Shown: positions 11,039 to 36,671, counted from the stretch's first letter. The stretch: 64,000 nt of DNA from an uncultured Thiothrix sp. (GCA_902595225.1 CACJPG010000002.1:65151-129150), one strand, 5' to 3'. The notes: a model not told the origin generated them from the sequence alone. Translations and numbers: made by a program.

Positions 11039-11923
<885 letters not shown>

Positions 11924-18923: not shown

Positions 18924-20747
18924 ATGTGCGGTATTGTTGCAGCAGCATCACAAAATAACGTGGTAAATATATTAGCTGATGGGTTAAAACATCTAGAATA
19001 TAGAGGTTACGATTCAGCAGGCATAGCTGTTATTGAAAATGAAAATATACATAGTTATAAAAAAGAAGGACATGTTTCTGAACTAACTAGTATTCTAGGT
19101 AAAGATCTAGCCTCGAATATTGGTATAGCACATACAAGATGGGCTACACATGGAAAACCATCTGAAGCAAATGCTCATCCCCATATATCTGAAAATAGTA
19201 TCGCAATTGTTCATAATGGTATTATTGAAAACTATATTGAAATAAAAGAAAAATTTTTTAAAAACATTAAGCTAGAATCCGAAACAGATTCCGAAGTATT
19301 AGCACATCTTATAAATTTTTATGCAAAAGATAATAATATTCTAGATGCTGTACATTCTGCCTTAAAAGAAGTTAAAGGCTCTTATGCAATCGCAGTCTTA
19401 GATAAAAATAATTCTAGCGAAATAATAGTTGCGCGCCATGGCAGTCCTCTTATTATTGGTGTTGGTGAAGATTCTAATTTCATTGCGTCTGATGCTCATG
19501 CTTTAATTGAACATACAAATCAATTTATATATTTAGATGATGGCGATATGGCTTCAGTGAGTTCAAGCGAAATAAATATTTTCGATAAAGATAAAAATTC
19601 CGTAAATAGAGAAATAAAAAAAAGTAACATTTCATTAGGAAGTAATTCAAAAAATGGATTTGAGCACTTTATGCTTAAAGAAATTTTTGAACAACCAGAG
19701 GCGGTTAAAGCAACAATTCAAGACCGAATAATAAATAACTCTGTACCTAAAGAGATTTTAGGGCCAAGTGCTGAAAAATATCTTGATGGTTTTAAGGTGG
19801 TTCAAATCATTGCATGTGGAACGAGTTATCATGCAGCCTTATTAGCAAAACATTGGTTTGAAAAACTTGCTGGAATTCCCTGCCAGGCAGAAATCGCAAG
19901 TGAATTTAGATATAGGAAGCACGCTGTTCAACCTGGAACATTATCCATATGTATTTCACAGTCTGGAGAGACAGCAGATACTCTTTCGGCATTAAGACAA
20001 ATAAAAGAAGAAAAGAATTATATTGGCACCATTGCAATATGCAATGTGCCAGAAAGTTCAATTGCAAGAGAATGCGATTCAACTTTAATAACACATGCGG
20101 GTCCTGAAATCGGAGTTGCATCAACAAAGGCTTTTACAACACAATTGGTTGCCTTAATGCTTTTAATAATTGTACTCGGGAAAAATTTTGAAATTTCGGA
20201 AGAAATTGAAAAATCACTATGTGAACAATTACAAACTTTACCTGAAAAGATTAAAAGCACCTTGGATTTAGACCAAGAAATAGCAGAACTCTCAAAAATA
20301 TTTTCTAATAAGGAGCATGCTCTATTTTTAGGTCGAGGCTCACATTTCCCAATAGCCAGAGAGGGCGCTTTAAAACTTAAAGAAATATCTTATATTCACG
20401 CAGAAGCTTACGCTGCAGGCGAGCTAAAACATGGGCCGCTTGCTATTGTTGACGAAAATATGCCAGTAGTAGCGGTTGCTCCAAATAATGTTGTTTTAGA
20501 GAAACTGAAATCAAATCTTGAAGAAGTTAAAGCACGTGGTGGAAAACTTTATATATTTGCAGATAAAAAAGCTGGATTTAAAAGTGACGAGATTTCTCAA
20601 GTTTTTGAAATCGATGCACCGCTAAATCCTGTCGCTCCGATACTTTTTACCATTCCTTTGCAACTTTTAGCATATCACTGCGCCATTATTAAAGGTACAA
20701 ATGTTGATATGCCTCGCAACCTTGCCAAATCGGTTACAGTGGAATGA
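18924..20747 (+). CDS. glmS: glutamine--fructose-6-phosphate aminotransferase
   Basis: 607 aa with the N-terminal MCGIV nucleophile, two SIS domains, and the canonical C-terminus ...PRNLAKSVTVE. Confidence 0.98.
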   Translation: MCGIVAAASQNNVVNILADGLKHLEYRGYDSAGIAVIENENIHSYKKEGHVSELTSILGKDLASNIGIAHTRWATHGKPSEANAHPHISENSIAIVHNGIIENYIEIKEKFFKNIKLESETDSEVLAHLINFYAKDNNILDAVHSALKEVKGSYAIAVLDKNNSSEIIVARHGSPLIIGVGEDSNFIASDAHALIEHTNQFIYLDDGDMASVSSSEINIFDKDKNSVNREIKKSNISLGSNSKNGFEHFMLKEIFEQPEAVKATIQDRIINNSVPKEILGPSAEKYLDGFKVVQIIACGTSYHAALLAKHWFEKLAGIPCQAEIASEFRYRKHAVQPGTLSICISQSGETADTLSALRQIKEEKNYIGTIAICNVPESSIARECDSTLITHAGPEIGVASTKAFTTQLVALMLLIIVLGKNFEISEEIEKSLCEQLQTLPEKIKSTLDLDQEIAELSKIFSNKEHALFLGRGSHFPIAREGALKLKEISYIHAEAYAAGELKHGPLAIVDENMPVVAVAPNNVVLEKLKSNLEEVKARGGKLYIFADKKAGFKSDEISQVFEIDAPLNPVAPILFTIPLQLLAYHCAIIKGTNVDMPRNLAKSVTVE

Positions 20748-20770
20748 GTTTCATTGGACAGGATGGGTAG
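20730..20770 (+). repeat. repeat R0: the native glmS terminus (core tcggttacagtggaatga) plus right arm gtttcATTGGACAGGATGggtag
   Basis: The right arm immediately follows the glmS stop. There is no left arm; glmS coding sequence occupies that position. Confidence 0.8.
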
Positions 20771-20776
20771 AAAAAA

Positions 20777-21154
20777 ATGATGAATAAATTGATAAAAATA
20801 TTTTGCAATAGTTGTCTTGTTTTTTTAACAAGTATTTCTTTTGTTTTTGCAGAAGAGAATATATCTAATACATCTTGGTATATTTCTCATAATGATGGTC
20901 ATGAATATATTTTTCAATTTAATCCAGATGGAACTTGCCTCTATTTCCAGAAAAATTCTCCCACTGGAAATACTGGAAAAATCTATGATAACTGCAAATG
21001 GGTTAGGAAAAATAAAGTTTTAGTATTTGATTCTAATAATTATTATGCGGTACACATAGGCAGAATAGAAGGAAGAAGTATGACTGGTTATCGCGTATCA
21101 AATCACGACGTAGTAAAAAAAAGTACTTTTATTGGAAGAAGGATAGATAATTAA
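20777..21154 (+). CDS. cassette 1: small secreted protein of unknown function
   Basis: 125 aa with the Sec-type signal peptide ...LTSISFVFA/EE. No promoter module of its own, so probably read through from glmS. Confidence 0.6.
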   Translation: MMNKLIKIFCNSCLVFLTSISFVFAEENISNTSWYISHNDGHEYIFQFNPDGTCLYFQKNSPTGNTGKIYDNCKWVRKNKVLVFDSNNYYAVHIGRIEGRSMTGYRVSNHDVVKKSTFIGRRIDN

Positions 21155-21183
21155 ATGAGTAAACACAATACATTGAGACCGAT

Positions 21184-21293
21184 GAACATCCTGTCCAATC
21201 AAACGAAATCAGTCACGGTGGAGTAGTTAACTTCCGACATGATGGGTCAGTCCTAATTTTACAACCTCAACAATAATCCGTAGTATTAAAAGT
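21184..21293 (+). repeat. repeat R1: type A left arm, core tcagtcacggtggagtag, right arm, promoter-like module
   Basis: gaaCATCCTGTCCAATc...tcagtcacggtggagtag ttaacttccGACATGATGGgtcagtcctaatTTTACA-17-TAGTAT-7-ATG. Confidence 0.8.
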
Positions 21294-21698
21294 ATGAAAA
21301 TTAAATTACTCACAGTTTGTTTACTCTTAGTCACCTTGCAGGTGTTTGCAGAAAATAGATTTAATTGGACGCTAATATCTACCAGCACTGCTGATGATGG
21401 AAATAAATTTTATGGTGATATAAATAGCATCAGAAAGAACAAATCAGGAAATTATGTTGTTTGGATGTTACTTAATAACGTTGAAGGAGATTCTGTTGTT
21501 ACTTCTGAAGAGTATGATTGTACTCGATTAAGATTTAGATGGGTATATGTTGAACTCTATAGTCATCATTATGGAAAAGGAAAAAAAAAATTTACTGCTG
21601 ACACAGAAGAATTAAAACCAAAAGGTTATACTGATTGGATTTATCCTAAACCCAATTCAAATAATTACCATAAAGTTAATTTCGTTTGTGAAAAATGA
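21294..21698 (+). CDS. cassette 2: secreted protein, surface-adhesin protein E (Adhesin_E)-like fold family
   Basis: 134 aa, signal peptide MKIKLLTVCLLLVTLQVFA/E. Pattern W..I...(K)FY.D..SIRKN....VVWML.N...S...EYDC...R.R.....Y..HYGKG...W.YP......VNFVC matches my recollection of the Adhesin_E domain. Paralog of 22605-23003. Confidence 0.6.
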   Translation: MKIKLLTVCLLLVTLQVFAENRFNWTLISTSTADDGNKFYGDINSIRKNKSGNYVVWMLLNNVEGDSVVTSEEYDCTRLRFRWVYVELYSHHYGKGKKKFTADTEELKPKGYTDWIYPKPNSNNYHKVNFVCEK

Positions 21699-21815
21699 TG
21701 ACGATAACCATCATGTCCATACAAACGCAATCCGTAACAGTGGAGTAGTTAACTTCCGACAGGATGGGTCAGTCCAAATTTTACAATTTCAAAATAATCC
21801 GTATTATTAAAAAAA
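21698..21815 (+). repeat. repeat R2: type A left arm, core tccgtaacagtggagtag, right arm, promoter-like module
   Basis: ATGACGATAACCATCATGTCCat...tccgtaacagtggagtag ttaacttccGACAGGATGGgtcagtccaaatTTTACA-16-TATTAT-8-ATG. Confidence 0.8.
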
Positions 21816-22193
21816 ATGAAAATTAAAATATTTATAACTTGTCTATTTTTTTTATTTTCCGCCAACAGTTTTGCAGAATGGACGGAAATAGGCAGAAATG
21901 AAAAAAATGCTTTGTATATAGATTCTGAAAGAATAAGAAAAGATAATCTTGGGCACATATATGTTTATGTTTTGATGAATCACCTTAACGATGATGACCC
22001 CCGCTCTACAATTGCCTATTTCCAATGCGATTGTGATAAATTCTCATTTAAAATTTTGAAGGAGTTTTATCATAGAAAACTAATGGGTGTTGATAGATAC
22101 GATGATTACGCTGAACCAAAACCAGAATGGAATTACATTTATCCTGAATCAGGAAATGAACTGATTTTAAAGTATGCATGTGAAAATCTCTAA
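21816..22193 (+). CDS. cassette 3: secreted protein, Adhesin_E-like family
   Basis: 125 aa, signal peptide ...FSANSFA/E, then WTEIGRNEKNALYIDSERIRKD...YFQCDCDK...W.YIYPES...YACE. Paralog of 26430-26801. Confidence 0.55.
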   Translation: MKIKIFITCLFFLFSANSFAEWTEIGRNEKNALYIDSERIRKDNLGHIYVYVLMNHLNDDDPRSTIAYFQCDCDKFSFKILKEFYHRKLMGVDRYDDYAEPKPEWNYIYPESGNELILKYACENL

Positions 22194-22308
22194 TGACGAT
22201 AACCATCCTGTCAGAAGTAGAATATTCGGTAACAGTGGAATGAGTTTCAATGGACAGGATGAGTCAGTCCTAATTTTACAATCTTAAAATAATACGTATT
22301 ATTAAAGT
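22193..22308 (+). repeat. repeat R3: type A left arm, core tcggtaacagtggaatga, right arm, promoter-like module
   Basis: ATGACGATAACCATCCTGTCAGAAGT...tcggtaacagtggaatga gtttcaatGGACAGGATGAgtcagtcc.... Confidence 0.8.
22275..22302 (+). promoter_or_regulatory. representative cassette promoter-like module: TTTACA-16 nt-TATTAT ending 6 nt before the ATG (predicted leaderless transcript)
   Basis: The same arrangement recurs in R1, R2, R3, R7, R8, R9 and R10, with the -10-like hexamer 6-8 nt upstream of the ATG and no Shine-Dalgarno. R5 has the same TTTACA-16-TATTAT, but there the next ATG lies 33 nt downstream of the conserved attaaag. Housekeeping genes in this window have GGAG-type SD sequences. 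Confidence 0.45.
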
Positions 22309-22584
22309 ATGAAAATAAAAAAACTAGTAATTTCTTTAATATTATTTTGTAATCTTGCTTATGCCGCATCTGAAGAAAAGCAAATGGAATGGATTAATGA
22401 ATGTATTACACACACACCAAACAATATCTCATATGCTAGAGCAGTAGAATATTGTGGTTGTGCAACTAGAAAATTAATGGATCGATTTACAGAAAAGCAA
22501 ATAGATAACTCTTCTGCAGAAGATATCGCAAAGAATAAGTTAATGTCTGATATTGTTGAAGAATGTAATGCTGTAATAGAATGA
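22309..22584 (+). CDS. cassette 4, ORF a: small secreted Cys-containing protein
   Basis: 91 aa with signal peptide MKIKKLVISLILFCNLAYA/A. Confidence 0.55.
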   Translation: MKIKKLVISLILFCNLAYAASEEKQMEWINECITHTPNNISYARAVEYCGCATRKLMDRFTEKQIDNSSAEDIAKNKLMSDIVEECNAVIE

Positions 22585-22604
22585 ACAAATTTTTCTACTA
22601 ATAA

Positions 22605-23003
22605 ATGAAAACCAAACTACTCACAATCTGTTTACTTTTATTTTCTTCACAGTTGTTTGCAGAAAATTTATTTAATTGGACATACATAGCAACGAGTGAT
22701 GATGGTACTAAATATTATGCAGATAAAAATAGCATCAGAAAGAATAAATCAGGAAATTATATTGTTTGGATGTTAGATAATTCCAGTAAAGGAGATTCAT
22801 TAATTGCATCTGAAGAGTATGATTGTTCTAATTTAAGATATAGATTGGTATATGCTGCACTCTATAATAATCATTATGGAAAAGGGGGAAAAATAGGTTC
22901 TTATGACACAGAGCAATTAAAGTCAATAGGCAAATATAATTGGGTTTATCCTACACCGAAAACACCTAATGACTCTAAAGTTAATTGGGTTTGCAGAAAC
23001 TAA
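22605..23003 (+). CDS. cassette 4, ORF b: secreted protein, Adhesin_E-like family
   Basis: 132 aa, MKTKLLTICLLLFSSQLFA/E. Clear paralog of 21294-21698 (ENLFNWTYIATSDDGTKYYADKNSIRKNKSGNYIVWML...EEYDC...). Confidence 0.65.
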   Translation: MKTKLLTICLLLFSSQLFAENLFNWTYIATSDDGTKYYADKNSIRKNKSGNYIVWMLDNSSKGDSLIASEEYDCSNLRYRLVYAALYNNHYGKGGKIGSYDTEQLKSIGKYNWVYPTPKTPNDSKVNWVCRN

Positions 23004-23088
23004 AGATTAAAACAAAAAAAAGAATGGGAAAAGAAAAAGAAAAAATTTATAATATTTAAGATTTTAAAAAAATTATTGCTAAAAACTT

Positions 23089-23457
23089 ATGGATTTTAAA
23101 ACTGCTGTCAAAACATGTCTTATTGAAAAATATACAACTTTTTCTGGAAGAGCATCTAGATCGGAATACTGGTATTTCACTTTATTTACAACCATAGTTT
23201 TTATATGTGCGAATATTATAGATAATGCAATAGATCCGTATAGCATATTTGGAACATTCTACTTACTTTGCTTAGTGCTTTTAATTACGCCTATTATAGC
23301 ATGTGGTGCTAGAAGACTTCATGATATTGGAAGGTCTGGTTGGTGGTTATTAATTTATCTTACAGGTATTGGTTCAATCCTCATATTTATTTGGTCAATT
23401 ATAGCGGGAACCAAAAACGATAATGAGTATGGTATAAGTACTTACATTGGTAAATAA
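23089..23457 (+). CDS. cassette 4, ORF c: DUF805-family inner membrane protein
   Basis: 122 aa with motifs F.GRASRSEYWYF and RRLHDIGRSGWW characteristic of DUF805 (YhaH/YhaI-like). Multiple TM segments. Confidence 0.75.
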   Translation: MDFKTAVKTCLIEKYTTFSGRASRSEYWYFTLFTTIVFICANIIDNAIDPYSIFGTFYLLCLVLLITPIIACGARRLHDIGRSGWWLLIYLTGIGSILIFIWSIIAGTKNDNEYGISTYIGK

Positions 23458-23560
23458 TTGCACTACCACCTCCAACTCACCTTCCATAACGGTGGAGTAG
23501 TTGCTTTTGGACAGGGTGGGTCTGTTATCTCAGGGTCAGTTCCCTATCTATGTTTTACCA
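23458..23560 (+). repeat. repeat R4: type B left arm, core tccataacggtggagtag (V to I), right arm with a 14-nt insertion
   Basis: ttgcactaccacctccaactcaccttccataacggtggagtag ttgcttTTGGACAGGGTGGgtctgttatctcagggtcagttcc.... Confidence 0.75.
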
Positions 23561-23580
23561 ATATAGTGTTTAAATTATGC

Positions 23581-23611
23581 AATACTTCGAAAAATTGCTA
23601 TAAAGAGATTA
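23581..23611 (+). repeat. second upstream element, copy T2a (AATACTTCGAAAAATTGCTATAAAGAG...)
   Basis: Shares about 28 nt with 25484-25513 and 27781-27810. Followed by a truncated copy of the atgaaaaataa... start seen at 25514. Confidence 0.6.
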
Positions 23612-23646
23612 ATGAAAAATAAGTTTTTTTAAAGAAGGATCAAAAA

Positions 23647-23973
23647 ATGATAAGTATGAAATGGGTACTTTATATTATTGGTGTATCAAGTTGGATACTA
23701 TTTTTATATCAGAATACTGCAGAGAAATATGGATTCATGTCTGGCACCTTCTTTATGAACGGATACGGATTCTTAACAGGATTAATATCAGTAATTGTAT
23801 GCATTTTTTTGATGAGTGAGTTTTATGATTATTTAGAAATACTAGGAAGTTATTTTTTATTTCTATTAATTGCTGGTGCTTTAATTGGCGGATTGAAACA
23901 TCATGCACAGGGTTTAGGTTTATTTGGTCTTGTAATAGGGTACGTTTTATTTTTTATAAATAAATTTATTTAA
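23647..23973 (+). CDS. cassette 5, ORF a: small polytopic membrane protein
   Basis: 108 aa with 3-4 hydrophobic segments. Confidence 0.55.
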   Translation: MISMKWVLYIIGVSSWILFLYQNTAEKYGFMSGTFFMNGYGFLTGLISVIVCIFLMSEFYDYLEILGSYFLFLLIAGALIGGLKHHAQGLGLFGLVIGYVLFFINKFI

Positions 23974-23985
23974 CATGTTAAGAAA

Positions 23986-24741
23986 ATGAAAACCAAACTA
24001 CTCACAATCTGTTTACTCTTATTCACTTCGCAAGTGTTTGCAGAAGAATGCAAAGGAACAGATAAATCTAAGTGGAATAGTTGCATTGGCATAATAGATA
24101 CTTTTGAAAAAATAGAAGAAACAGATACAACGGAGGTTTGGGGTAGTGAAAAAATAGAAGGAAGATATGAGGGTGGTTTTGAACAAGGGTTATTTACTTC
24201 ACAATTTGAAGAAAAAATTATTCATAAAAATATTATTGTAAACGGTAAACATTTCTCAACCAGCAATCGTGGTTTTATGACTGGAAATTTTAAAGATGGA
24301 GTGCAAATAGGTTTATGGGGAGAATGTATCACTACCAATAACAGGTACAAACAATATAATCAGTTTGAAATTGGTAACTATAATAAACACGGGATTCGTG
24401 ATGGAGTTTGGGGACGTTTTTATTATGAAACAACTGCTTTTGATGGAAGTTTTGAAAAAACAGGATGTCATAAAAAAACAGTAGAATTATTTCTTGATAA
24501 AGAAAATTTATGCTCACAAAAGAAAAACAGTCATTTTGCAAGTTTTGAAACATATCTTAATGGCGAGAAAGTATCGGATTTTAACAAACTTTCTTGCAGA
24601 GGTCCGTCTGAATTTATTAATGGTTGGTTGGATTATATATCTACAATTGATGAAGAAAAATTATATTGTGAAGATACTTCATGCAAAAAACCAAGTAATA
24701 CCGACCCAGAATATGCAGAATGGATAAAGAATTTTGAATAA
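23986..24741 (+). CDS. cassette 5, ORF b: secreted protein with degenerate MORN/YwqK-like repeats
   Basis: 251 aa, MKTKLLTICLLLFTSQVFA/EECKG...W.SC.G. This N-module is shared with 27811 and 35688. Has G.xxG-type repeats (NFKDGVQIGLWGE, NKHGIRDGVWGRF). Confidence 0.55.
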   Translation: MKTKLLTICLLLFTSQVFAEECKGTDKSKWNSCIGIIDTFEKIEETDTTEVWGSEKIEGRYEGGFEQGLFTSQFEEKIIHKNIIVNGKHFSTSNRGFMTGNFKDGVQIGLWGECITTNNRYKQYNQFEIGNYNKHGIRDGVWGRFYYETTAFDGSFEKTGCHKKTVELFLDKENLCSQKKNSHFASFETYLNGEKVSDFNKLSCRGPSEFINGWLDYISTIDEEKLYCEDTSCKKPSNTDPEYAEWIKNFE

Positions 24742-24847
24742 CTGCACTATCACCTTCAAGTCACTTCTATCACAGTGGAATGAGTTTCATTGGAAAGGAT
24801 GGGTCAGTCCTAATTTTACAATCTCAAAATAATCCGTATTATTAAAG
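24742..24847 (+). repeat. repeat R5: type B left arm (1-nt deletion), core tctatcacagtggaatga (V to I), right arm, promoter-like module
   Basis: ctgcactatcaccttcaagtcacttctatcacagtggaatga gtttcATTGGAAAGGATGGgtcagtcctaatTTTACA-16-TATTAT. Confidence 0.8.
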
Positions 24848-24879
24848 ACATAAAAATATAAGAATTATATGAGACAAAG

Positions 24880-25320
24880 ATGGGATTATTTAGTTCAAAA
24901 CAAAACATTAGTAACGAAGGGGTATTTAAAAGTATTGTTGATACTATTGGATTTTTGAACTATTTTTTTACAGAAGTAGAAAAAGAAGATTTTACTAAGA
25001 ATACCAGTGAAGGCGTAAAATTTTTTGGAAGATTTTGTTATAATTTTGATGACATGTTTTATTATGCACTTGGTCGTGCAAATATCAAATTAAATAAAGA
25101 GCAAAAGCATAATGTGAAACTTGCATGTGGTTTAATCAGGGATTCACTTTGGGAACCAGAAATAAATGAGATTAAAAATTGTGTTGAGAAATTCTCAGAT
25201 TATCATAAACAAGCAAATGGAAAGTTGATTGCAGGATCTGACCATCCGATGTTTAAGGACTCGGCAACAAAAGTATTTAGAAAAGAACTCGCAGAGCATG
25301 GCATTACTTTTGTTGATTAG
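24880..25320 (+). CDS. cassette 6: hypothetical protein without a signal peptide
   Basis: 146 aa, no hydrophobic N-terminus. One of the few cargo ORFs with neither a signal peptide nor a TM segment. Confidence 0.5.
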   Translation: MGLFSSKQNISNEGVFKSIVDTIGFLNYFFTEVEKEDFTKNTSEGVKFFGRFCYNFDDMFYYALGRANIKLNKEQKHNVKLACGLIRDSLWEPEINEIKNCVEKFSDYHKQANGKLIAGSDHPMFKDSATKVFRKELAEHGITFVD

Positions 25321-25363
25321 CAACACTATCACCTCCAAGTCACCTTCCGTAACAGTGGAGTGA
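25321..25363 (+). repeat. repeat R6: type B left arm plus core tccgtaacagtggagtga; right arm degenerate or absent
   Basis: caacactatcacctccaagtcaccttccgtaacagtggagtga, then unrelated tgttaaacagttgg.... Confidence 0.7.
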
Positions 25364-25463
25364 TGTTAAACAGTTGGTTATGTAATGGGTAAATCGTAAA
25401 AATAGAATTCAGTAAGTATAAGGGTTTTAAGATGTCAGTTTTAGGGTAGTTTAGAGAACGATT

Positions 25464-25513
25464 GGAATGAGGAAAAACTATAAAAATATTTCAAAAATTG
25501 CTATAAAGAGAAT
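25464..25513 (+). repeat. second upstream element, copy T2b
   Basis: ggaatgaggaaaaactataaaaatatttcaaaaattgctataaagagaat compared with 27761-27810 ggaataaggaagaactataaaaatacttaaaaaattgctataaaggaagt gives 43/50 identical by hand count. Confidence 0.7.
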
Positions 25514-25678
25514 ATGAAAAATAATATGAAAGAGTGTGAAGGGTGTGGAAATACAGTTGCAGTATATGCTAATAAATGCCCTAACTGCGGTGCATATACA
25601 CATAAAAGTTTTCAAATAATAGAACTTATTTTTGCAATCTTGACAGTCTCCTTCATTGTATGGTGGTTTATATTGTAA
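25514..25678 (+). CDS. cassette 7, ORF a: small zinc-ribbon protein with a C-terminal TM anchor
   Basis: Below the ORF-track cutoff. Hand translation gives MKNNMKECEGCGNTVAVYANKCPNCGAYTHKSFQIIELIFAILTVSFIVWWFIL (54 aa) with CxxC-x10-CxxC and a hydrophobic tail. Confidence 0.5.
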   Translation: MKNNMKECEGCGNTVAVYANKCPNCGAYTHKSFQIIELIFAILTVSFIVWWFIL

Positions 25679-25745
25679 TGAAATATTCCATTACAATAAA
25701 AAATATCCACACCTACAAAATAACAATTACCCGTATCACGAAAAA

Positions 25746-26396
25746 ATGAAAACCAAACTACTCACAATCTGTTTGCTCTTAGTCACCTCGCAGGTGTTTG
25801 CAGAAGAATGGGCGAATATTTATACTAATAGCGGTGATAAACTTCAAATAGCATTGCCTGACGGGTATTGTGATATTACTCAAACAAATGAAGGTAAATT
25901 TATACTTAATCACTTGAATAAGACAAAACGAAATCTTTCTATTTATAAAAATTTTGAAGCAAAAATTGTATATAATTTATGTGGAAAAAAATATGATTAT
26001 CCATGGGGTTATATATTTTTTAATAATCAAAAATATTCTTCTTCATACACACAAACAGATTTAAACAAACTTGAATCTTCCTCTTTCAATAAAACTTATA
26101 TAAATGAAATAAAAGAAAAAACAAATAAAAGTCATGATATTAATAATCAAGATATAAAAATAGAGTCAGTAGATAGACCTGAATTAGTTTGGGAGGACAA
26201 AAATGCACTGATTTTTTATACCAATATACAGGCAAATATTGAAGGGCAGAAGTTTATTGAAGAGGTAACAGGTAGCACTATTTTATTTAATGGTTACCAA
26301 TTTTCTATGTACATTTATGACAAAAAAGGCGCGCAAAATTCTCTTCATAATTCTCAGTTACTTTTAAATGCTGCTAAATCGACTAAAAGTAGGTAA
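25746..26396 (+). CDS. cassette 7, ORF b: secreted protein of unknown function
   Basis: The track ORF starts at 25656. The internal ATG at 25746 gives the conserved MKTKLLTICLLLVTSQVFA/EE signal peptide, so it is the preferred start (216 aa). Confidence 0.6.
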   Translation: MKTKLLTICLLLVTSQVFAEEWANIYTNSGDKLQIALPDGYCDITQTNEGKFILNHLNKTKRNLSIYKNFEAKIVYNLCGKKYDYPWGYIFFNNQKYSSSYTQTDLNKLESSSFNKTYINEIKEKTNKSHDINNQDIKIESVDRPELVWEDKNALIFYTNIQANIEGQKFIEEVTGSTILFNGYQFSMYIYDKKGAQNSLHNSQLLLNAAKSTKSR

Positions 26397-26429
26397 ATTA
26401 TATACTTACTAAGTAGTTACTAAGTAAAT

Positions 26430-26801
26430 ATGAAAACCAAACTACTCACAATCTGTTTGCTCTTATTCACCTCGCAAGCGTTTGCAGGATGGACTGAGGT
26501 TGGTAAAAATAGCAGTGGTACAATTTTTTATGTAGACTTTGATAGAACTAAAGAGCATAACGGTTATAAATATTTTTATATGTTAGGTGATTACTTGACA
26601 CCATATAACAATGTTTTATCAACTGAATATTATATTCAACTTGATTGTAATAAATATAGATATAGACATATCAGTTTTATATTTTATGATCAATCCATGG
26701 GTAAAGGAAACGGCAGAGTAGATAACGAAATGATGAAGTGGGAAAATATAACTAAAGGTACTATGAATTATACTGTTAGTAAAAAAGTTTGCGATCGCTA
26801 A
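26430..26801 (+). CDS. cassette 7, ORF c: secreted protein, Adhesin_E-like family
   Basis: 123 aa, MKTKLLTICLLLFTSQAFA/G, then WTEVGKNSSGTIFYVDFDR...YIQLDCNKYRYR...GKGNG...W.NI...VC. Confidence 0.6.
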   Translation: MKTKLLTICLLLFTSQAFAGWTEVGKNSSGTIFYVDFDRTKEHNGYKYFYMLGDYLTPYNNVLSTEYYIQLDCNKYRYRHISFIFYDQSMGKGNGRVDNEMMKWENITKGTMNYTVSKKVCDR

Positions 26802-26836
26802 AACAATATTAAAATATATCAGTGTTTGATGCATAA

Positions 26837-26945
26837 TTACACTATCACCTCCAGCACAAATTCCGTCACCGTAGAATAATTTTGTATGGACAGGGTGGGT
26901 CAGTCCTAATTTTACAATATTAAAATAATTGGTATTATTGAAAGA
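26837..26945 (+). repeat. repeat R7: type B left arm, core tccgtcaccgtagaataa, right arm, promoter-like module
   Basis: ttacactatcacctccagcacaaattccgtcaccgtagaataa ttttgtaTGGACAGGGTGGgtcagtcctaatTTTACA-16-TATTAT-7-ATG. Confidence 0.8.
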
Positions 26946-27701
26946 ATGAAAACCAAACTACTCACAATCTGTTTACTCTTATTTACTTCACAGGTGTTTG
27001 CAGAAGGTAAATGGACTTCAACAAATAAACCTAATTGCTTAGTATGGGATCCGGCACCTAGAGACGAACAGACTGTTACATGGTCAGGAGAATGTAAATC
27101 TGGGAAAATACATGGCAAAGGTTTATTAACATGGAATTTTAAAACAAATGGTACACCTCAAACTCAATTAAACGAAGGTGAATTTAAAAATGGACGATTT
27201 TTTGGTCGATTTAAATATACATTTGAAAATGGTGATATATATATTGGTGATGTGCATGAGGAAACTGGAGATATGCACGGACGAGGCACTTATAAATATA
27301 TCAATGGTGATAAGTACGTTGGTGAATATAAGAATGGTCTACTTCACGGACGAGGCACTGCTACCTTAGCAGATGGAGCAGAATATGTTGGAGAATTTAA
27401 AGAAGACAATATGCACGGACGAGGCACTTTTACTTTTCCTGATGGAGAACAGTACATAGGCGAGTGGAAAGAAAATGTTATGCACGGACGAGGCACTTAT
27501 AATTATGCCAATGGTGATAAGTACGTTGGTGAGTACAAGAATGACAATATGCACGGACGAGGCACTTTTACTTATCACAATGGTGATAAGTACGTTGGCG
27601 AGTGGAAAGAAAATGTTATGCACGGACGAGGCACCTACACTTTTGCAGATGGAACAAAAAAAATTGGTCAATTTAAGAATGACGAATATATCGGCAAATA
27701 A
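26946..27701 (+). CDS. cassette 8, ORF a: secreted MORN-repeat protein
   Basis: 251 aa, conserved signal peptide, then about 8 MORN units (Y.GE.KN...HGRGT..Y.NGDK). Confidence 0.8.
   Translation: MKTKLLTICLLLFTSQVFAEGKWTSTNKPNCLVWDPAPRDEQTVTWSGECKSGKIHGKGLLTWNFKTNGTPQTQLNEGEFKNGRFFGRFKYTFENGDIYIGDVHEETGDMHGRGTYKYINGDKYVGEYKNGLLHGRGTATLADGAEYVGEFKEDNMHGRGTFTFPDGEQYIGEWKENVMHGRGTYNYANGDKYVGEYKNDNMHGRGTFTYHNGDKYVGEWKENVMHGRGTYTFADGTKKIGQFKNDEYIGK
27273..27686 (+). repeat. 69-bp (23-codon) tandem repeats inside the MORN gene
   Basis: The cacggacgaggcac motif recurs at 27276, 27345, 27414, 27483, 27552 and 27621, an exact 69-nt period. Confidence 0.85.
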
Positions 27702-27760
27702 TTAAATCATCATTACTTGTTAATTATTCCATTCCTATAGTAACTTCAAAATAAATTTCT

Positions 27761-27810
27761 GGAATAAGGAAGAACTATAAAAATACTTAAAAAATTGCTA
27801 TAAAGGAAGT
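27761..27810 (+). repeat. second upstream element, copy T2c
   Basis: See T2b. Directly precedes the ATG at 27811. Confidence 0.7.
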
Positions 27811-28329
27811 ATGAAAACCAAACTACTCACAATCTGTTTACTCTTATTTACTTCACAGGTGTTTGCAGAAGAATGCAAAGGAAATTATTGGGATAATTGT
27901 TACAGCGCATACACTTTTACCGGTAAGTATGCAGGTGATAAATACATTGGCGAATGGAAGGATAACAAAATGCACGGACTCGGCACTTATACTTATGCCA
28001 TTGGAGATAAATACGTAGGTGAGTTTAAAAACGGAGATTTTCACGGACTTGGCACTTACACTTATGCCAGTGGAGATAAATACTTTGGTGAATATAAAAA
28101 TAATAACAGACATGGACAAGGCACTTACACTTATGCCAGTGGAGATAAATACTTTGGTGAATATAAAAATGATGAAAGATATGGACAAGGCACTTACACT
28201 TATGCCAACGGAGACAAATACGCTGGTGGATTTAAAAATGGCAAGTTTCACGGACAAGGTACTTACACTTATGCCAACGGAGACAAAGAAGTTGGTCAAT
28301 GGGAAAACGACGCATACGTCGGCAAATAA
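27811..28329 (+). CDS. cassette 8, ORF b: secreted MORN-repeat protein
   Basis: 172 aa, MKTKLLTICLLLFTSQVFA/EECKG..., with about 5-6 MORN units (GTYTYA.GDKY.GE.KN...HG.). Confidence 0.8.
   Translation: MKTKLLTICLLLFTSQVFAEECKGNYWDNCYSAYTFTGKYAGDKYIGEWKDNKMHGLGTYTYAIGDKYVGEFKNGDFHGLGTYTYASGDKYFGEYKNNNRHGQGTYTYASGDKYFGEYKNDERYGQGTYTYANGDKYAGGFKNGKFHGQGTYTYANGDKEVGQWENDAYVGK
27970..28310 (+). repeat. 69-bp tandem repeats inside the second MORN gene
   Basis: Unit-start codons at 27973, 28042, 28111, 28180 and 28249, period 69 nt. The units starting at 28111 and 28180 are nearly identical. Confidence 0.85.
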
Positions 28330-28438
28330 TTACTCTGTCACCTCCAACTCACCTTCCGTCACCGTGGAATAATTTTGTATGGACATGATGGGTCAGTCCT
28401 AATTTTACAATCTCAAAATAATCAGTAATATCAGTAGT
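28330..28438 (+). repeat. repeat R8: type B left arm, core tccgtcaccgtggaataa, right arm, promoter-like module
   Basis: ttactctgtcacctccaactcaccttccgtcaccgtggaataa ttttgtaTGGACATGATGGgtcagtcctaatTTTACA-16-TAATAT-7-ATG. Confidence 0.8.
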
Positions 28439-28780
28439 ATGAAAACCAAACTACTCGCAATCTGTTTACTCTTATTCACCTCGCAGGTGTTTGCGGCAGA
28501 TGTATTTGTATGTTCTTATAAAAATTATAAAAACGAGACACGTACATACACTTATATCAGAAAAGATGATGGTAAATTTGTTACCTTTTTAGACGATGTT
28601 GAAATTCCAATGGTAAAAACATATGAAGATAATACATACTTACATCTTGTAGTGTCATTTGAAAATTATTTATTCGCTAGGGTAATTAACAAAATAACTA
28701 AAAAGGTTGAGCAAGTGGGTATAGAAGAATCTAAAACATCAACTGTAGATAAAGTTTATGGAACTTGTAAGGTTAGATAA
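28439..28780 (+). CDS. cassette 9, ORF a: small secreted protein
   Basis: 113 aa, MKTKLLAICLLLFTSQVFA/A. Confidence 0.6.
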   Translation: MKTKLLAICLLLFTSQVFAADVFVCSYKNYKNETRTYTYIRKDDGKFVTFLDDVEIPMVKTYEDNTYLHLVVSFENYLFARVINKITKKVEQVGIEESKTSTVDKVYGTCKVR

Positions 28781-28823
28781 AAAAACGTAATCTACTTTAT
28801 AATAACAACTGAGGTACAAAAGT

Positions 28824-29180
28824 ATGAATATGATTGAATCTGTGACTACATGTTTAAGTAAATATTTTACGTTTGAAGGAGTTGCGACAAGACCAGAATA
28901 TTGGTGGTTCCAATTATTTTATTTCATAGTGATAATAGTCGGTATTGTGCTTGATGGTAATTCTACAAATTCCTGGGATCGAAATTATTACGGATATTGG
29001 GAACTAATATTTACATTATTATTTTTTATACCAGCAATTTCAGTGAGTTGTAGAAGACTTCATGATTTGGGTAAGTCAGGATGGTGGCAATTAATTGGGA
29101 TTACAATTATTGGTCTTATTCCATTGATTTACTGGTTTTGCAAAGAGGGAGGAGTTACAAGCAAATATTCTAGTGAATAA
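28824..29180 (+). CDS. cassette 9, ORF b: DUF805-family inner membrane protein
   Basis: 118 aa with F.G.ATRPEYWWF and RRLHDLGKSGWW motifs. Diverged paralog of 23089-23457. Confidence 0.75.
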   Translation: MNMIESVTTCLSKYFTFEGVATRPEYWWFQLFYFIVIIVGIVLDGNSTNSWDRNYYGYWELIFTLLFFIPAISVSCRRLHDLGKSGWWQLIGITIIGLIPLIYWFCKEGGVTSKYSSE

Positions 29181-29288
29181 TTGCACTATCACCTCCAACT
29201 CACATTCCGTAACAGTGGAATGAGTTCGTTTGGAAAGGGTGGGTCGGTCTGAATTTTACATTTTTTAAATATTCCGTATTATTTAAAT
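29181..29288 (+). repeat. repeat R9: type B left arm, core tccgtaacagtggaatga, right arm, promoter-like module
   Basis: ttgcactatcacctccaactcacattccgtaacagtggaatga gttcgtTTGGAAAGGGTGGgtcggtctgaatTTTACA-16-TATTAT-6-ATG. Confidence 0.8.
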
Positions 29289-29702
29289 ATGAAAATTAAA
29301 CTACTCGCAATCTGTTTACTTTTATTATCCTCGCAAGTGTTTGCGGATCCTGATTATAAGTGGAAGTATATGGCAGAAGGAAAGACTTATTTTTGGTATT
29401 GGGATAGCAAAAATTTGACTGAAAAAAATGATAATTATCTTTTGTGGGTATTATATGATAATAAATATATAGAAAAAGGTATAGGTTCTCAGGTTGCGCT
29501 AATTGAAATTGATTGTGCTTACAACAGATATAAGAATATTTACATAGAGTCTTATGATGGCCAAATGGCAAAAGGGAGAATGCTACATAAAATGAGTTCT
29601 GAAGATTTGCCAGATCATGATTTATGGAAATGGACTTTCATGATAAAAAATAAAAATATCCATAATTTATATTTTCTTTCTTATTGTGATAAAAGGAAAT
29701 AA
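29289..29702 (+). CDS. cassette 10: secreted protein, Adhesin_E-like family (divergent)
   Basis: 137 aa, MKIKLLAICLLLLSSQVFA/D, then W.Y....YFWYWDSKNL......LLWVLYDN....S.VALIEIDCAYNRYK...Y.G.MAKG...W.W....YCD. Confidence 0.5.
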   Translation: MKIKLLAICLLLLSSQVFADPDYKWKYMAEGKTYFWYWDSKNLTEKNDNYLLWVLYDNKYIEKGIGSQVALIEIDCAYNRYKNIYIESYDGQMAKGRMLHKMSSEDLPDHDLWKWTFMIKNKNIHNLYFLSYCDKRK

Positions 29703-29724
29703 TTGAATTTTAAGTGAATATAAG

Positions 29725-29830
29725 CCCCCTGTTTAAACAAACGAAATCAGTCACAGTGGAGTAGTTGCTTTTAGGAAGGATGGGTCCGTCCTAATTTTAC
29801 AATCTCAACAATAATTCGTATTATTGAAGT
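29725..29830 (+). repeat. repeat R10: degenerate type A left arm, core tcagtcacagtggagtag, right arm, promoter-like module
   Basis: ccccctgtttaaacaaacgaaatcagtcacagtggagtag ttgcttttaGGAAGGATGGgtccgtcctaatTTTACA-17-TATTAT-6-ATG. The spacer aaacgaaatcagtcac is shared with R1. Confidence 0.75.
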
Positions 29831-30190
29831 ATGAAAACTAAATTATTGATAACCTGCTTGTTATTTGCACCCTTATTAAGTTGGGGAGTAGATATGATTT
29901 CACCAATAAATTTTAATCCAACCCCTGCGAACAAGAATAAAGTAATTTCGTTTATTAAATATAATGTTAAAGAAACATATTCAAGAATTGGAATGGACAG
30001 TGAGTCAACTTTAAGAATGATGGAAGAAGAAGAGTTGAGGTGTTTTAAAGAACTTACAAAAGTACAAGATATCAATTTATTAAAGAGAGTTAAACGACAA
30101 CTTTGCAACATCGGTATGTGCACTTATTCTACTATTCTCATGATGTACAATGAAGAAGTCAGAGCGTCTAAAAAAAATCTTGAGTGGTAA
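29831..30190 (+). CDS. cassette 11, ORF a: small secreted protein
   Basis: 119 aa, MKTKLLITCLLFAPLLSWG.... Confidence 0.55.
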   Translation: MKTKLLITCLLFAPLLSWGVDMISPINFNPTPANKNKVISFIKYNVKETYSRIGMDSESTLRMMEEEELRCFKELTKVQDINLLKRVKRQLCNIGMCTYSTILMMYNEEVRASKKNLEW

Positions 30191-30203
30191 AATATAATAA
30201 AAA

Positions 30204-30548
30204 ATGAAAACCAAACTACTCACAATCTGTTTACTCTTATTTTCATCACAAGTGTGTGCAGAGACTTGGTCATGCACTTATGAGTTTAATGGCGAAACAA
30301 AAATCAAAGTTTTTTCTATTAAAGAAAATAAAGTTTATTCTAATGGAGAATTATATCAAAGTGCTAAAATACTTCTGAATAATAAAAATGTCATACACAT
30401 ATATACGAGTTATCCTCATATTGGTGATGTAACATTTTTTGCAGAAGTTTATAATAGAACCAACAAGAGATTTTCAATGGCAGCGATTAGTGCAATTAAA
30501 AATGAAAAATATGCTATTATTGAGGGTGATTGTATAATTACTAAATAA
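30204..30548 (+). CDS. cassette 11, ORF b: small secreted protein
   Basis: 114 aa, MKTKLLTICLLLFSSQVCA/E. Confidence 0.6.
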   Translation: MKTKLLTICLLLFSSQVCAETWSCTYEFNGETKIKVFSIKENKVYSNGELYQSAKILLNNKNVIHIYTSYPHIGDVTFFAEVYNRTNKRFSMAAISAIKNEKYAIIEGDCIITK

Positions 30549-30569
30549 AAATAATAAAAAGAGGATATC

Positions 30570-30875
30570 ATGGAAAAGTTTTTAACGTCACTAGGCATAG
30601 CAGGTGTTATCTTTTTTCTTCTACTTGGCATTGCTCAAATATATGTGGGATTTCTTGGTATAGAATACTTTTATGGTTCAATTTGGGCGTGGGTTGCCGT
30701 TTTTTGCGCATTTTTTCTACGTATCGTATTTCCTTGTACAATCGGATCTTATTTTGGAGCATTATACGTTTTAGAATGGGAGTGGTATTTTGCGCTAGCA
30801 TTCGCATTACCAGGTATTCTATTTATCCTTCCAGCGACAATAACTGCATTAATTTCATCATTCAACAAAAATTAA
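30570..30875 (+). CDS. cassette 11, ORF c: small polytopic membrane protein
   Basis: 101 aa, aromatic-rich, 3 TM segments, with an SD-like gaggat upstream. Confidence 0.55.
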   Translation: MEKFLTSLGIAGVIFFLLLGIAQIYVGFLGIEYFYGSIWAWVAVFCAFFLRIVFPCTIGSYFGALYVLEWEWYFALAFALPGILFILPATITALISSFNKN

Positions 30876-30932
30876 AATCAGTATTATTTACTTTTTTGGA
30901 TTTGAAAATTAAATTTAGGGAGATGGTTTTAA

Positions 30933-31229
30933 ATGGATAAAAGCATTTTTTGGATAGCGCCATTAGTTGTTTTGGGAGTTGGACTTCTTCCAATGCCCTA
31001 TGGTTATTATTTTCTATCTAGGTTAGTAGTATGTGTATGTGCAATTTATTATGCTTTGCAATTTAACGAGCATCGAGAGACAACATTAGTCTGGGTATTC
31101 AGTTTTTTTGCTATTTTATATAACCCAATTATACCTATTCATCTTGGAGCAAAAGGATTATGGATTGTTGTAAATTTAATTACTGCTGGAGTATTTTTTG
31201 CAAATAAGGATAAAATCCAATTGGGATAA
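30933..31229 (+). CDS. cassette 11, ORF d: small membrane protein (PYGYY...R...NPIIPIHLG-type family)
   Basis: 98 aa, 3-4 TM segments, SD agggag upstream. The motif layout resembles a widespread small membrane protein family. That is from memory and not verified. Confidence 0.55.
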   Translation: MDKSIFWIAPLVVLGVGLLPMPYGYYFLSRLVVCVCAIYYALQFNEHRETTLVWVFSFFAILYNPIIPIHLGAKGLWIVVNLITAGVFFANKDKIQLG

Positions 31230-31238
31230 TATGCTGAA

Positions 31239-31287
31239 GACGATAACCATCCTTTCCATATAAAAACATTCGGTAACAGTCGAATAA
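31239..31287 (+). repeat. repeat R11 (array terminus): type A left arm plus core tcggtaacagtcgaataa, with no right arm or module
   Basis: GACGATAACCATCCTTTCCatataaaaacattcggtaacagtcgaataa, followed by unrelated attattagaagtgc.... Confidence 0.8.
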
Positions 31288-31331
31288 ATTATTAGAAGTG
31301 CAAAAAAGTTCATATAGAACCTAATTAAAAA

Positions 31332-31541: not shown

Positions 31542-31652
31542 TCTAACTCCGCTTTAGTACTTTAGGCGATATGCCAAGGTGTACAAGTTGATTGATTAAA
31601 TACCTAACATCATTATATTGCTCAAGGCTGCATATGTCACTTAAATAAATAA

Positions 31653-36005: not shown

Positions 36006-36091
36006 AAATATTAGCATGTATAAAGTATAAAAAAGTAAAGAATGTCCCTATGATTTCTTCCTTAAGACCATAGGGCATCCATAAAGAGCAA

Positions 36092-36289
36092 CTAAGCGTC
36101 TTTTTCAGAATCTTCCATAACTTCTGATGACTCTTCTTTGCTATCTTTTTCCATTTTCACAGATTCTTTAGTCTCTTCTGCATGATCATGGTCTGCTGCA
36201 CGGTCTGCATCATCCTTATGTGCCCCGCTACAGTGACCAGCAAAAGATACTGCTGAGAAAAAATATAAAACTAATAATAAATATCTCAT
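36092..36289 (-). CDS. small secreted acidic His/Cys-containing protein (tandem paralog 1)
   Basis: 65 aa, signal peptide ...FFSAVSFA/GHCSGAHKDD..., acidic Ser/Glu/Lys-rich tail ending EKDA. Confidence 0.55.
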   Translation of the reverse strand: MRYLLLVLYFFSAVSFAGHCSGAHKDDADRAADHDHAEETKESVKMEKDSKEESSEVMEDSEKDA

Positions 36290-36311
36290 GATATGTCTCC
36301 TGTAAATTTAA

Positions 36312-36512
36312 TTAGGCGTCTTTTTCCGCTTTGTTCATTGCGTCAGACGATTCATCTTTACTTTCTTTTTCAGTTTTAGCGGACTCATTTGATTCCATGT
36401 AACCAGCTTGGTCGGCCTGACGATCTGGACCATTATGACTAGCACCAGAATTACAATGATTTGCAAATGAAATCGCTGAGAAAAAGTAAATTACAAACAA
36501 TAAATATTTCAT
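36312..36512 (-). CDS. small secreted acidic His/Cys-containing protein (tandem paralog 2)
   Basis: 66 aa, ...FFSAISFA/NHCNSGASHNG..., tail ending EKDA. Paralog of 36092-36289. Confidence 0.55.
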   Translation of the reverse strand: MKYLLFVIYFFSAISFANHCNSGASHNGPDRQADQAGYMESNESAKTEKESKDESSDAMNKAEKDA

Positions 36513-36671
36513 GTAAACCTCCTAAAAATATTGAAGGTTTAGTCTATACAAAATATCTTTTATATCTATATGTAAAATATCTGTACATATTTATATGTGC
36601 AAAATATATACATTTCCACTTTTTACACACTTATGAAGCACTATATCGGTATTTCTTGATATATTGCTTTT

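Follow-up and report, generated by a model that had tools for sequence, protein, structure and literature searches.

A conserved promoter-like module before the first codon of small gene cassettes arrayed at the glmS 3′ end of an uncultured Thiothrix sp.

Integron cassettes are, in textbook accounts, promoterless mobile genes whose expression is set by their distance from a single platform promoter. Leaderless genes, exemplified by lambda cI and Tn1721 tetR in Escherichia coli and by many genes of Actinobacteria and Deinococcus, have been demonstrated by 5′-end mapping; in genome sequences, their accepted signature is a −10-like signal placed about 10 nt ahead of the start codon. The transposon Tn7 inserts ~25 bp past the end of glmS, where it duplicates 5 bp of its target and leaves the glmS terminus uncopied. 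In the integron of Vibrio sp. DAT722, genes are expressed from promoters inside the cassette array, and one mapped sigma-70-type promoter is split between attC, which holds the −35, and the downstream cassette, which holds the −10; this promoter is unique to one cassette and lies before a gene led by a Shine–Dalgarno (SD) sequence (Michael & Labbate, 2010; PMC2945992). Here, we describe an array of small gene cassettes at the 3′ end of glmS in a 64,000-nt stretch from an uncultured Thiothrix sp. (GCA_902595225.1, CACJPG010000002.1:65151-129150; the window), and a promoter-like module found at the 5′ end of most of these cassettes.

The window is AT-rich (32% GC), belongs to a gammaproteobacterium and shows the order mnmG–rsmG–parAB–atpBEFHAGDC–glmU–glmS, as read from the sizes and order of the open reading frames (ORFs). 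The identities of atpD, atpC, glmU and glmS are backed by Pfam matches in a syntenic locus, L097 (related loci carry the prefix L), where the 607-aa GlmS product matches the GATase and SIS families. The final codons of glmS, TCG GTT ACA GTG GAA TGA (SVTVE-stop), are repeated at every junction of the array. Each junction is composed of a left arm, a core ~20 nt further on, a right arm GGACAGGATGGGT ~10 nt past the core and, usually, the module; all array cassettes are oriented like glmS. As in the DAT722 integron, small mobile cassettes stand in tandem and a putative promoter bridges the recombination site, with its −35 abutting the right arm in the present case. In contrast to that integron, most cassettes here carry one stereotyped module that directly adjoins the ATG, and their recombination sites are of another kind than attC. 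Nor was IntI, attI or Pc found: the array starts in the glmS end, and a Pfam scan of the 20 ORFs of 150 aa or more on the downstream side of the array returned no integrase or other recombinase, the ORFs upstream of glmS being assigned by size and order only. An integron was considered and rejected, as the arms ACCATCCTGTCC and GGACAGGATGGGT, inspected by eye, are without the GTTRRRY of attC boxes (RYYYAAC ... GTTRRRY). The nearest box candidates, GTTACAG, GTAACAG and GTCACGG, lie in the core and vary at the defining positions. An initial annotation of this DNA had set the cassettes against classical, mostly promoterless integron cassettes; that contrast has to be drawn with caution, since these are not integron cassettes and cassette-borne promoters are already documented in large chromosomal integrons (PMC2945992). 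Full-text literature searches retrieved no description of a glmS-linked cassette array, leaderless cassettes or a stereotyped ATG-fused cassette promoter, and the text of the LRMED metagenome-assembled genome (MAG) paper does not mention the glmS-linked array.

The 18-nt block GTCAGTCCTAATTTTACA occurs eight times in the window at up to three mismatches, always on the plus strand, compared with 0.11 copies in shuffled sequences. Eight of the 12 junctions carry it as part of a module GTCAGTCCTAATTTTACA-N16/17-TAnnAT; R0, R4, R6 and R11 are without it. At seven of the eight copies a promoter scan recognizes TTTACA, a spacer of 16–17 nt and TATTAT or TAGTAT, with 10 of 12 consensus matches (nine at R1), and the −10-like TAATAT of R8 was recognized by eye. 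Against the sigma-70 consensus, TTTACA matches at five of six positions and the three −10-like hexamers at four or five. These hexamers and spacings, which the initial annotation had listed, were found again at all eight copies, as were its distances of 6–8 nt between hexamer and ATG at R1, R2, R3 and R7–R10 (Table 1) and the lack of a module before cassette 1, where R0 is the real glmS end. Its 46-nt junction string fared less well: the 18-nt block is present as stated above, but the whole string is a consensus that two junctions approach within three mismatches. The gap between the −10-like hexamer and the ATG in the seven copies is A/T-rich and free of an SD, and the ATG is the first possible start of its ORF, with GTG and TTG starts also allowed in ORF calling. 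The products of module cassettes open with a typical signal peptide, MK(T/I)KLL.... Promoter-consensus matches are not enriched in this AT-rich window (94, and 98 in shuffles), so that the match itself means little; what is significant is that its position is conserved. The module is a genuine and conserved element that keeps a fixed position at the 5′ end of most cassettes.

To describe the module beyond the window, we compared 50 unique copies from marine sequences, comprising seven MAG loci and 35 metagenome loci. The search pattern contained the −35, and the −10 was not part of it. The spacer between −35 and −10 measures 16 nt in 34 copies, 17 nt in 13 and 18 nt in two, which places 49 of 50 at 16–18 nt. 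The ATG of a long ORF follows the hexamer after 6 nt in 22 copies, 7 nt in 11 and 8 nt in one (34/50). Core genes of the window lack a comparable signal, with TAnnnT ending 6–8 nt before the start in seven of 57. The weighted information in the −10 is ~1.0 bit at T1, ~1.5 bits at the invariant A2, 0.25–0.75 bit at positions 3–5 and ~1.25 bits at T6. This profile resembles the classical sigma-70 pattern and, the copies being related, is suggestive rather than proof. Copies with diverged spacers and discriminators keep the hexamers and distances, as in TTTACA-ATAGTCTAATAAAGTA-TAAACT-GGTAAAT-ATG and in the further copies L007:5096, L032:2251 and L097:5998. About ten copies have longer leaders, most of them with an SD-like motif (AAGGAGG in L016; GGGAG in L029 and L037; GGAAAG in L033; GAGGTG in L034; GGAACGGG in L002), and in L016, L029 and L037 the module's own ATG is kept as a mini-ORF of 3–5 codons. 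The module is present in MAGs of 29–38% GC and across oceans.

We propose that the module, at the 5′ boundary of small mobile cassettes integrating into the glmS 3′ end, would act as a portable signal for their expression. In this proposal, a sigma-70-type promoter (TTTACA, 16–17 nt, TAnnAT) would be fused to the first codon, and transcription would start at the A of the ATG or beside it. Sigma-70 promoters typically initiate 7 nt (range ~6–8) past the last −10 base, and a 6-nt gap would thus put a canonical start on the A of the ATG. The predicted product is a leaderless or near-leaderless mRNA, usually for a secreted protein with the signal peptide MKTKLLTICLLLFTSQVFA, and each cassette would be expressed wherever it is placed in the array, independently of read-through from glmS. 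Like known leaderless genes, the cassette genes have a −10 at 6–8 nt, no SD and ATG rather than GTG or TTG; in contrast to those genes, with their mapped 5′ ends, here we infer the starts from sequence. To our knowledge, leaderless units clustered on mobile cassettes have not been described in a gammaproteobacterium. A cassette-borne promoter is the likely part of the proposal, the odds on leaderless or near-leaderless mRNAs are even, and we lean slightly towards the combined explanation of a portable promoter and a leaderless start. The start on or next to the A, which the initial annotation had predicted, fits the modal 6-nt gap and stays a prediction as far as leaderless mRNA is concerned; likewise, promoter activity, the precise position of the start and the use of the 5′-terminal AUG in translation are predictions.

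A second module (...AAAAATTGCTATAAAG...), not homologous to the first and absent from the initial annotation, shows the same arrangement. It contains an extended −10, TGCTATAAA (TGnTATAAA), that ends 6–7 nt before an ATG, and occurs three times in the window (Table 1) and three times elsewhere (L029:55, L033:4046 and L037:3638). Since the two modules are not homologous and share the distance from −10 to ATG, the geometry appears to have arisen twice. The ATG at 23612 opens a mini-ORF of six codons, and an SD-led gene follows at 23647.

The junctions themselves point to recombination at the glmS end. Of the 44 unique cores, which are copies of the glmS terminal codons, 30 encode SVTVE-stop and 32 S(V/I)TVE-stop. 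They use four TCN, four GTN, three ACN and both GAR codons, with TAG, TGA and TAA as stops in 15, 13 and 12 cases, and their conservation has a 3-nt periodicity. Copies of SVTVE-stop were seen at the window junctions (20730-31290), in L001–L042 and in L097–L101, with almost all variation synonymous. Because variation is confined to synonymous positions, the cores must have been under selection as working glmS ends, which in turn implies that cassettes recombine into the glmS end and bring a replacement terminus. The left arm is of type A, ACCATCCTGTCC, or of a shorter, degenerate type B, CACTATCACCTCCAA. The arms of a cassette are inverted, 11–13 nt long and roughly 37 bp apart around the core. 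In the junctions examined (R0–R3 and R10–R11 of the window; 4719, 5998, 6669, 7414 and 8049 of L097), covariation links the arms at the two ends of one cassette and not those on the two sides of a junction. Examples are R1 right GACATGATGG with R2 left CCATCATGTC, R10 right GGAAGGATGG with R11 left CCATCCTTTCC and, in L097, 5998 right TTGAACAGGATGG with 6669 left CATCCTGTTCAA. This covariation places a zone of exchange between the arms. By contrast, right arms differ when one cassette is found in different contexts, and similarity breaks off at the boundary between right arm and GGGT, which argues for another such zone within GGGTCAGTCC...TTTACAAT, a highly conserved block. The crossover locations given by arm covariation and by context breakpoints contradict each other.

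Two groups of observations weigh against a promoter fused to a leaderless start, and the first concerns conservation. Conservation is highest in GGGTCAGTCC, a stretch upstream of the −35 that belongs to no promoter element and may serve the recombination machinery or a regulator. The spacer is conserved at ~0.75–1 bit, beyond what a promoter needs, and a conserved G at −13, 5′ of the hexamer, is not canonical for sigma-70. Because the copies share ancestry, conservation counted over them does not represent independent events, and −35 conservation outside the window is partly ascertainment, as the pattern included the −35. Aberrant copies are retained as well, with spacings of 19 and 23 nt in the first cassettes of L097 and L098 and a 3-nt gap from −10 to ATG in L001. 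Moreover, leaderless mRNAs are rare in the Gammaproteobacteria studied so far. Several of these features would be expected if the module chiefly belonged to the recombination site, as a binding region of the arm type or for an accessory protein, and resembled a promoter only incidentally in AT-rich DNA. The strongest conservation, in GGGTCAGTCC and TAATTTTACAAT, is contiguous with the right arm, the breaks at GGGT place exchange in or beside the module block, the spacer is conserved more than a promoter needs, and promoter-like matches are equally frequent in shuffles. We nevertheless consider this explanation unlikely. Junctions with complete arms and no module are common (R0 and R4; L097:5243, 8049 and 10458; L100), which makes the module dispensable for array membership, an optional cargo rather than an obligatory part of the att site. 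The module block is also without an inverted partner at cassette 3′ ends. A role in recombination leaves unexplained the invariant A2 and T6 around variable positions 3–5, the ATG at 6–8 nt in 34 of 50 copies and the same distance in the unrelated extended −10 module. A loose regular expression for junctions gave many false positives in coding DNA, and its count of junctions without a module was not used.

The second group concerns translation and read-through. The initial annotation had contrasted the SD-less gap with clear SDs at core genes. Both SDs that it quoted are real and the gap has none, but an SD-like motif precedes only ~13 of 37 core genes, and about two thirds, some of them within the atp operon, are without. 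Over all loci, 45 distinct genes share the block that codes for the signal peptide, ATGAAAACCAAACTACTCACAATCTGTTT... (MKTKLLTICLLLFTSQVFA), as a conserved DNA sequence; ~25 of them have no upstream module, and an SD is likewise missing from most of these ~25. Internal initiation without an SD is evidently normal in this genome, so read-through transcripts could equally well be translated at the same ATG. The missing SD is thus not diagnostic, because the genome is SD-poor and cassette genes without the module also lack an SD. Between 17000 and 36000, three terminator-like sites were found on both strands, compared with 6.9 in shuffles, and only one on the plus strand is within the co-oriented array (29203-29222, at R9). 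Single-strand DNA folding of nine junctions, a test for attC-like hairpins or terminators, gave z values of −1.6 to +1.2, no better than shuffles. Core genes without a recognizable SD lie, for example, at 11048, 14802, 17071, 17550, 42779 and 49278.

These findings bear on a further explanation, in which the module is an SD-independent translation-initiation region on transcripts reading through from glmS or upstream cassettes, that is, an A/U-rich, unstructured leader with in-frame stops and no notable promoter activity. The SD-poor genome, with its internal atp genes, and the internal cassette genes that share the signal peptide and have neither module nor SD fit such a leader, while the co-orientation of all cassettes with glmS, the lack of terminator enrichment and junction hairpins no more stable than shuffles fit read-through. 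A translation leader, however, gives no reason for TTTACA at 16–17 nt from TAnnnT or for the A2/T6 pattern, and in copies with a long leader the gene has its own SD, downstream of the module, rather than relying on the module. This explanation seems to us quite improbable.

The signal-peptide block is C/A-rich and nearly G-free and stands in front of different mature proteins. In the window it opens the genes at 21294, 22605, 23986, 25746, 26430, 26946, 27811, 28439, 29289 and 30204. Homology between the gene at 22605 and L097:10001 starts exactly at the ATG, and the block may act as a recombination joint. We also considered that the module has no function and is carried along with the adjoining signal-peptide sequence by recent duplication, gene conversion and homologous exchange between cassettes. 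Many module copies are nearly identical, and the signal-peptide block, conserved as DNA in the 45 genes, acts as a breakpoint in the pair just described; both speak for such passive transport. Passive transport is very unlikely given the position-specific conservation within diverged copies, the persistence of the module across MAGs of 29–38% GC and across oceans, and the independent second module of the same geometry. The palindrome AATAAT-N4-ATTATT overlaps the −10 (e.g. 22287-22302 of the window) and is perfect in R3 (ATAATACGTATTAT), and a G directly 5′ of the −10 hexamer is nearly invariant; this arrangement may constitute an operator bound by a shared regulator.

The array is a hypervariable island in which cassettes turn over. 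L097 and L098 are 95–96% identical in glmS and glmU and 97.6% identical in the downstream flank, and share only three segments of the ~10-kb array, in another order (array limits 20748-31330 in the window and 4734-14170 in L097). Similarly, the cassette with the TAAACT variant is the first after glmS in L006 and L026 and internal in L011, L021 and L032. The R5 cassette is also present in L097 (9326-9919). Integrative elements at gene 3′ ends, with phage-type integrases and accretion in the manner of CIMEs, resemble this array in the target 3′ end at every junction, the restored ORF and the tandem arrangement. They differ from it in that the present units are of 0.5–2 kb, with no cognate integrase found in any array examined, and in the inverted arms around the core. 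Without an integrase of their own, the cassettes would have to be mobilized in trans. Tn7 and attTn7 share the landmark, the glmS end. A Tn7-like transposon was rejected, with the glmS terminus at every junction and no tns-like ORFs by Pfam among the ORFs downstream of the array.

Taken more broadly, streamlined marine Gammaproteobacteria might harbour an undescribed integron-like capture system independent of attC and IntI, although we hold this only tentatively and judge it rather doubtful as a whole. Cassettes would recombine into the last codons of glmS, each with a replacement terminus, most with a plug-in promoter and a leaderless ATG, and often with a shared Sec signal peptide, so that their cargo of surface or secreted proteins and restriction-modification systems would be expressed at once at any position. 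A non-integron cassette system that rewrites the glmS end may be the more novel part, compared with the module. If the proposed function of the module is true, the design is opposite to that of integrons, with autonomous units, position-independent expression and no ribosome-binding site. It would help to explain how an abundant, genome-streamlined ocean bacterium keeps a hypervariable array useful, and would offer a compact natural part combining a promoter with a leaderless start. In addition, candidate leaderless genes of a gammaproteobacterium would be available as a concentrated set, which is rare, and could be tested directly with ocean metatranscriptomes that already exist.

Table 1. 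Coordinates of glmS, the cassette array, its junctions and the promoter-like modules in the window
Feature	Position	Strand	Description
glmS	18924..20747	+	607-aa ORF after atpBEFHAGDC-glmU
R0	20730..20768	+	Genuine glmS end and right arm GGACAGGATGGGT; no module; cassette-1 ATG 20777; repeat family D5
Cassette array	20748..31330	+	12 junction repeats R0-R11, ~21 small co-oriented genes; repeat families D3-D5, D7, D8, D12
R1 module	21246..21296	+	TTTACA 21258-21263, 17-nt spacer, TAGTAT to 21286, 7 nt, ATG 21294
R2 module	21768..21818	+	TTTACA 21780, 16-nt spacer, TATTAT to 21807, 8 nt, ATG 21816
R3 module	22263..22311	+	TTTACA 22275, 16-nt spacer, TATTAT to 22302, 6 nt, ATG 22309
R4	23461..23521	+	Left arm, core, right arm; different conserved 5′ end CTGTTATCTCAGGGTCAGTTCCCTATCTATGTTTTACC replaces the module
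Second module	23560..23614	+	TATAAA 23599-23604, 7 nt, ATG 23612; repeat family D13
R5 module	24803..24882	+	TTTACA 24815, TATTAT to 24842, 37-nt leader, ATG 24880 after GAGACAAAG
R6	25324..25391	+	Degenerate: left arm and core, decayed right arm, no module
Second module	25463..25516	+	TATAAA 25502-25507, 6 nt, ATG 25514; repeat family D13
R7 module	26899..26948	+	TTTACA 26911, 16-nt spacer, TATTAT to 26938, 7 nt, ATG 26946
Second module	27760..27813	+	Within two-gene cassette; TATAAA 27799-27804, 6 nt, ATG 27811; repeat family D13
R8 module	28392..28441	+	TTTACA 28404, 16-nt spacer, TAATAT 28426-28431, 7 nt, ATG 28439
R9 module	29243..29291	+	Most diverged window copy; TTTACA 29255, TATTAT to 29282, 6 nt, ATG 29289
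R10 module	29784..29833	+	TTTACA 29796, 17-nt spacer, TATTAT to 29824, 6 nt, ATG 29831
R11	31240..31330	+	Terminal, decayed; left arm ACCATCCTTTCC, core GTAACAGTCGAATAA; repeat family D14; array end

The alternative 5′ end of R4 is also found in L011, L013, L033 and L037. In these four loci and at 23521-23560 of the window it reads CTGTT(A/C)TCTCAGGGTC(A/T)(G/A)TTCCCTATCTATGTTTTACC, and it resembles a duplicated and since diverged GGGTCAGTCC..TTTTAC that has gained an insertion and has no −10 at the right spacing.

As to recombinases in the arrays examined, the only genes seen are a tyrosine integrase gene and a resolvase gene in L002 (2094-3630, downstream of guaA), the link of which to the cassettes is not established. 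The resolvase is cut after 87 residues by a junction (…GGAGTAGTTGC…GGGTCAGTCC and module), which suggests insertion at a secondary site resembling ACGT/GGAG. Among the 20 window ORFs downstream of the array and 19 ORFs of related loci, Pfam otherwise identified core genes, restriction-modification systems and HNH nucleases, with no recombinase besides this integrase and the truncated resolvase. IMG/VR viral contigs scanned with GTCCTAATTTTACAAT gave 54 matches, all by chance inside phage genes and none at a junction. At the level of RNA and protein records, Rfam returned no RNA family for the whole window at gathering thresholds, and exact-sequence look-ups of the window GlmS and two cassette proteins returned no record.

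The cassette type also occurs away from glmS. In L008 (9790-10300) a single complete junction with the module and a gene for a 93-aa signal-peptide protein lies in a tRNA-Ser island beside czc-type efflux genes, and further examples were seen in L003, L004, L010, L017, L019, L030 and L038. Such occurrences show that the cassette type is not restricted to glmS.

The cargo in the window includes Adhesin_E-like proteins, DUF805 and MORN-repeat proteins. Two neighbouring cassette genes at 27244-28309 encode MORN-repeat proteins, with 69-nt tandem repeat units (families D1 and D11). Elsewhere, the cargo comprises Type ISP and Type I restriction-modification systems, an SRA-HNH protein, a C5 methylase and HNH nucleases; defence-type cargo lies in L011 (1258-6123), L013 (1596-7528), L037 (5237-6661), L007 (2128-3336), L022 (4789-5799), L097 (11129-11446) and L100 (534-1217). 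Beyond R11 the genes are on the opposite strand, and the conserved flank begins at 31645. Outside the array, two tandem small ORFs of 65 and 66 aa, ~70–76% identical, lie on the minus strand at 36090-36513 and are kept in L097.

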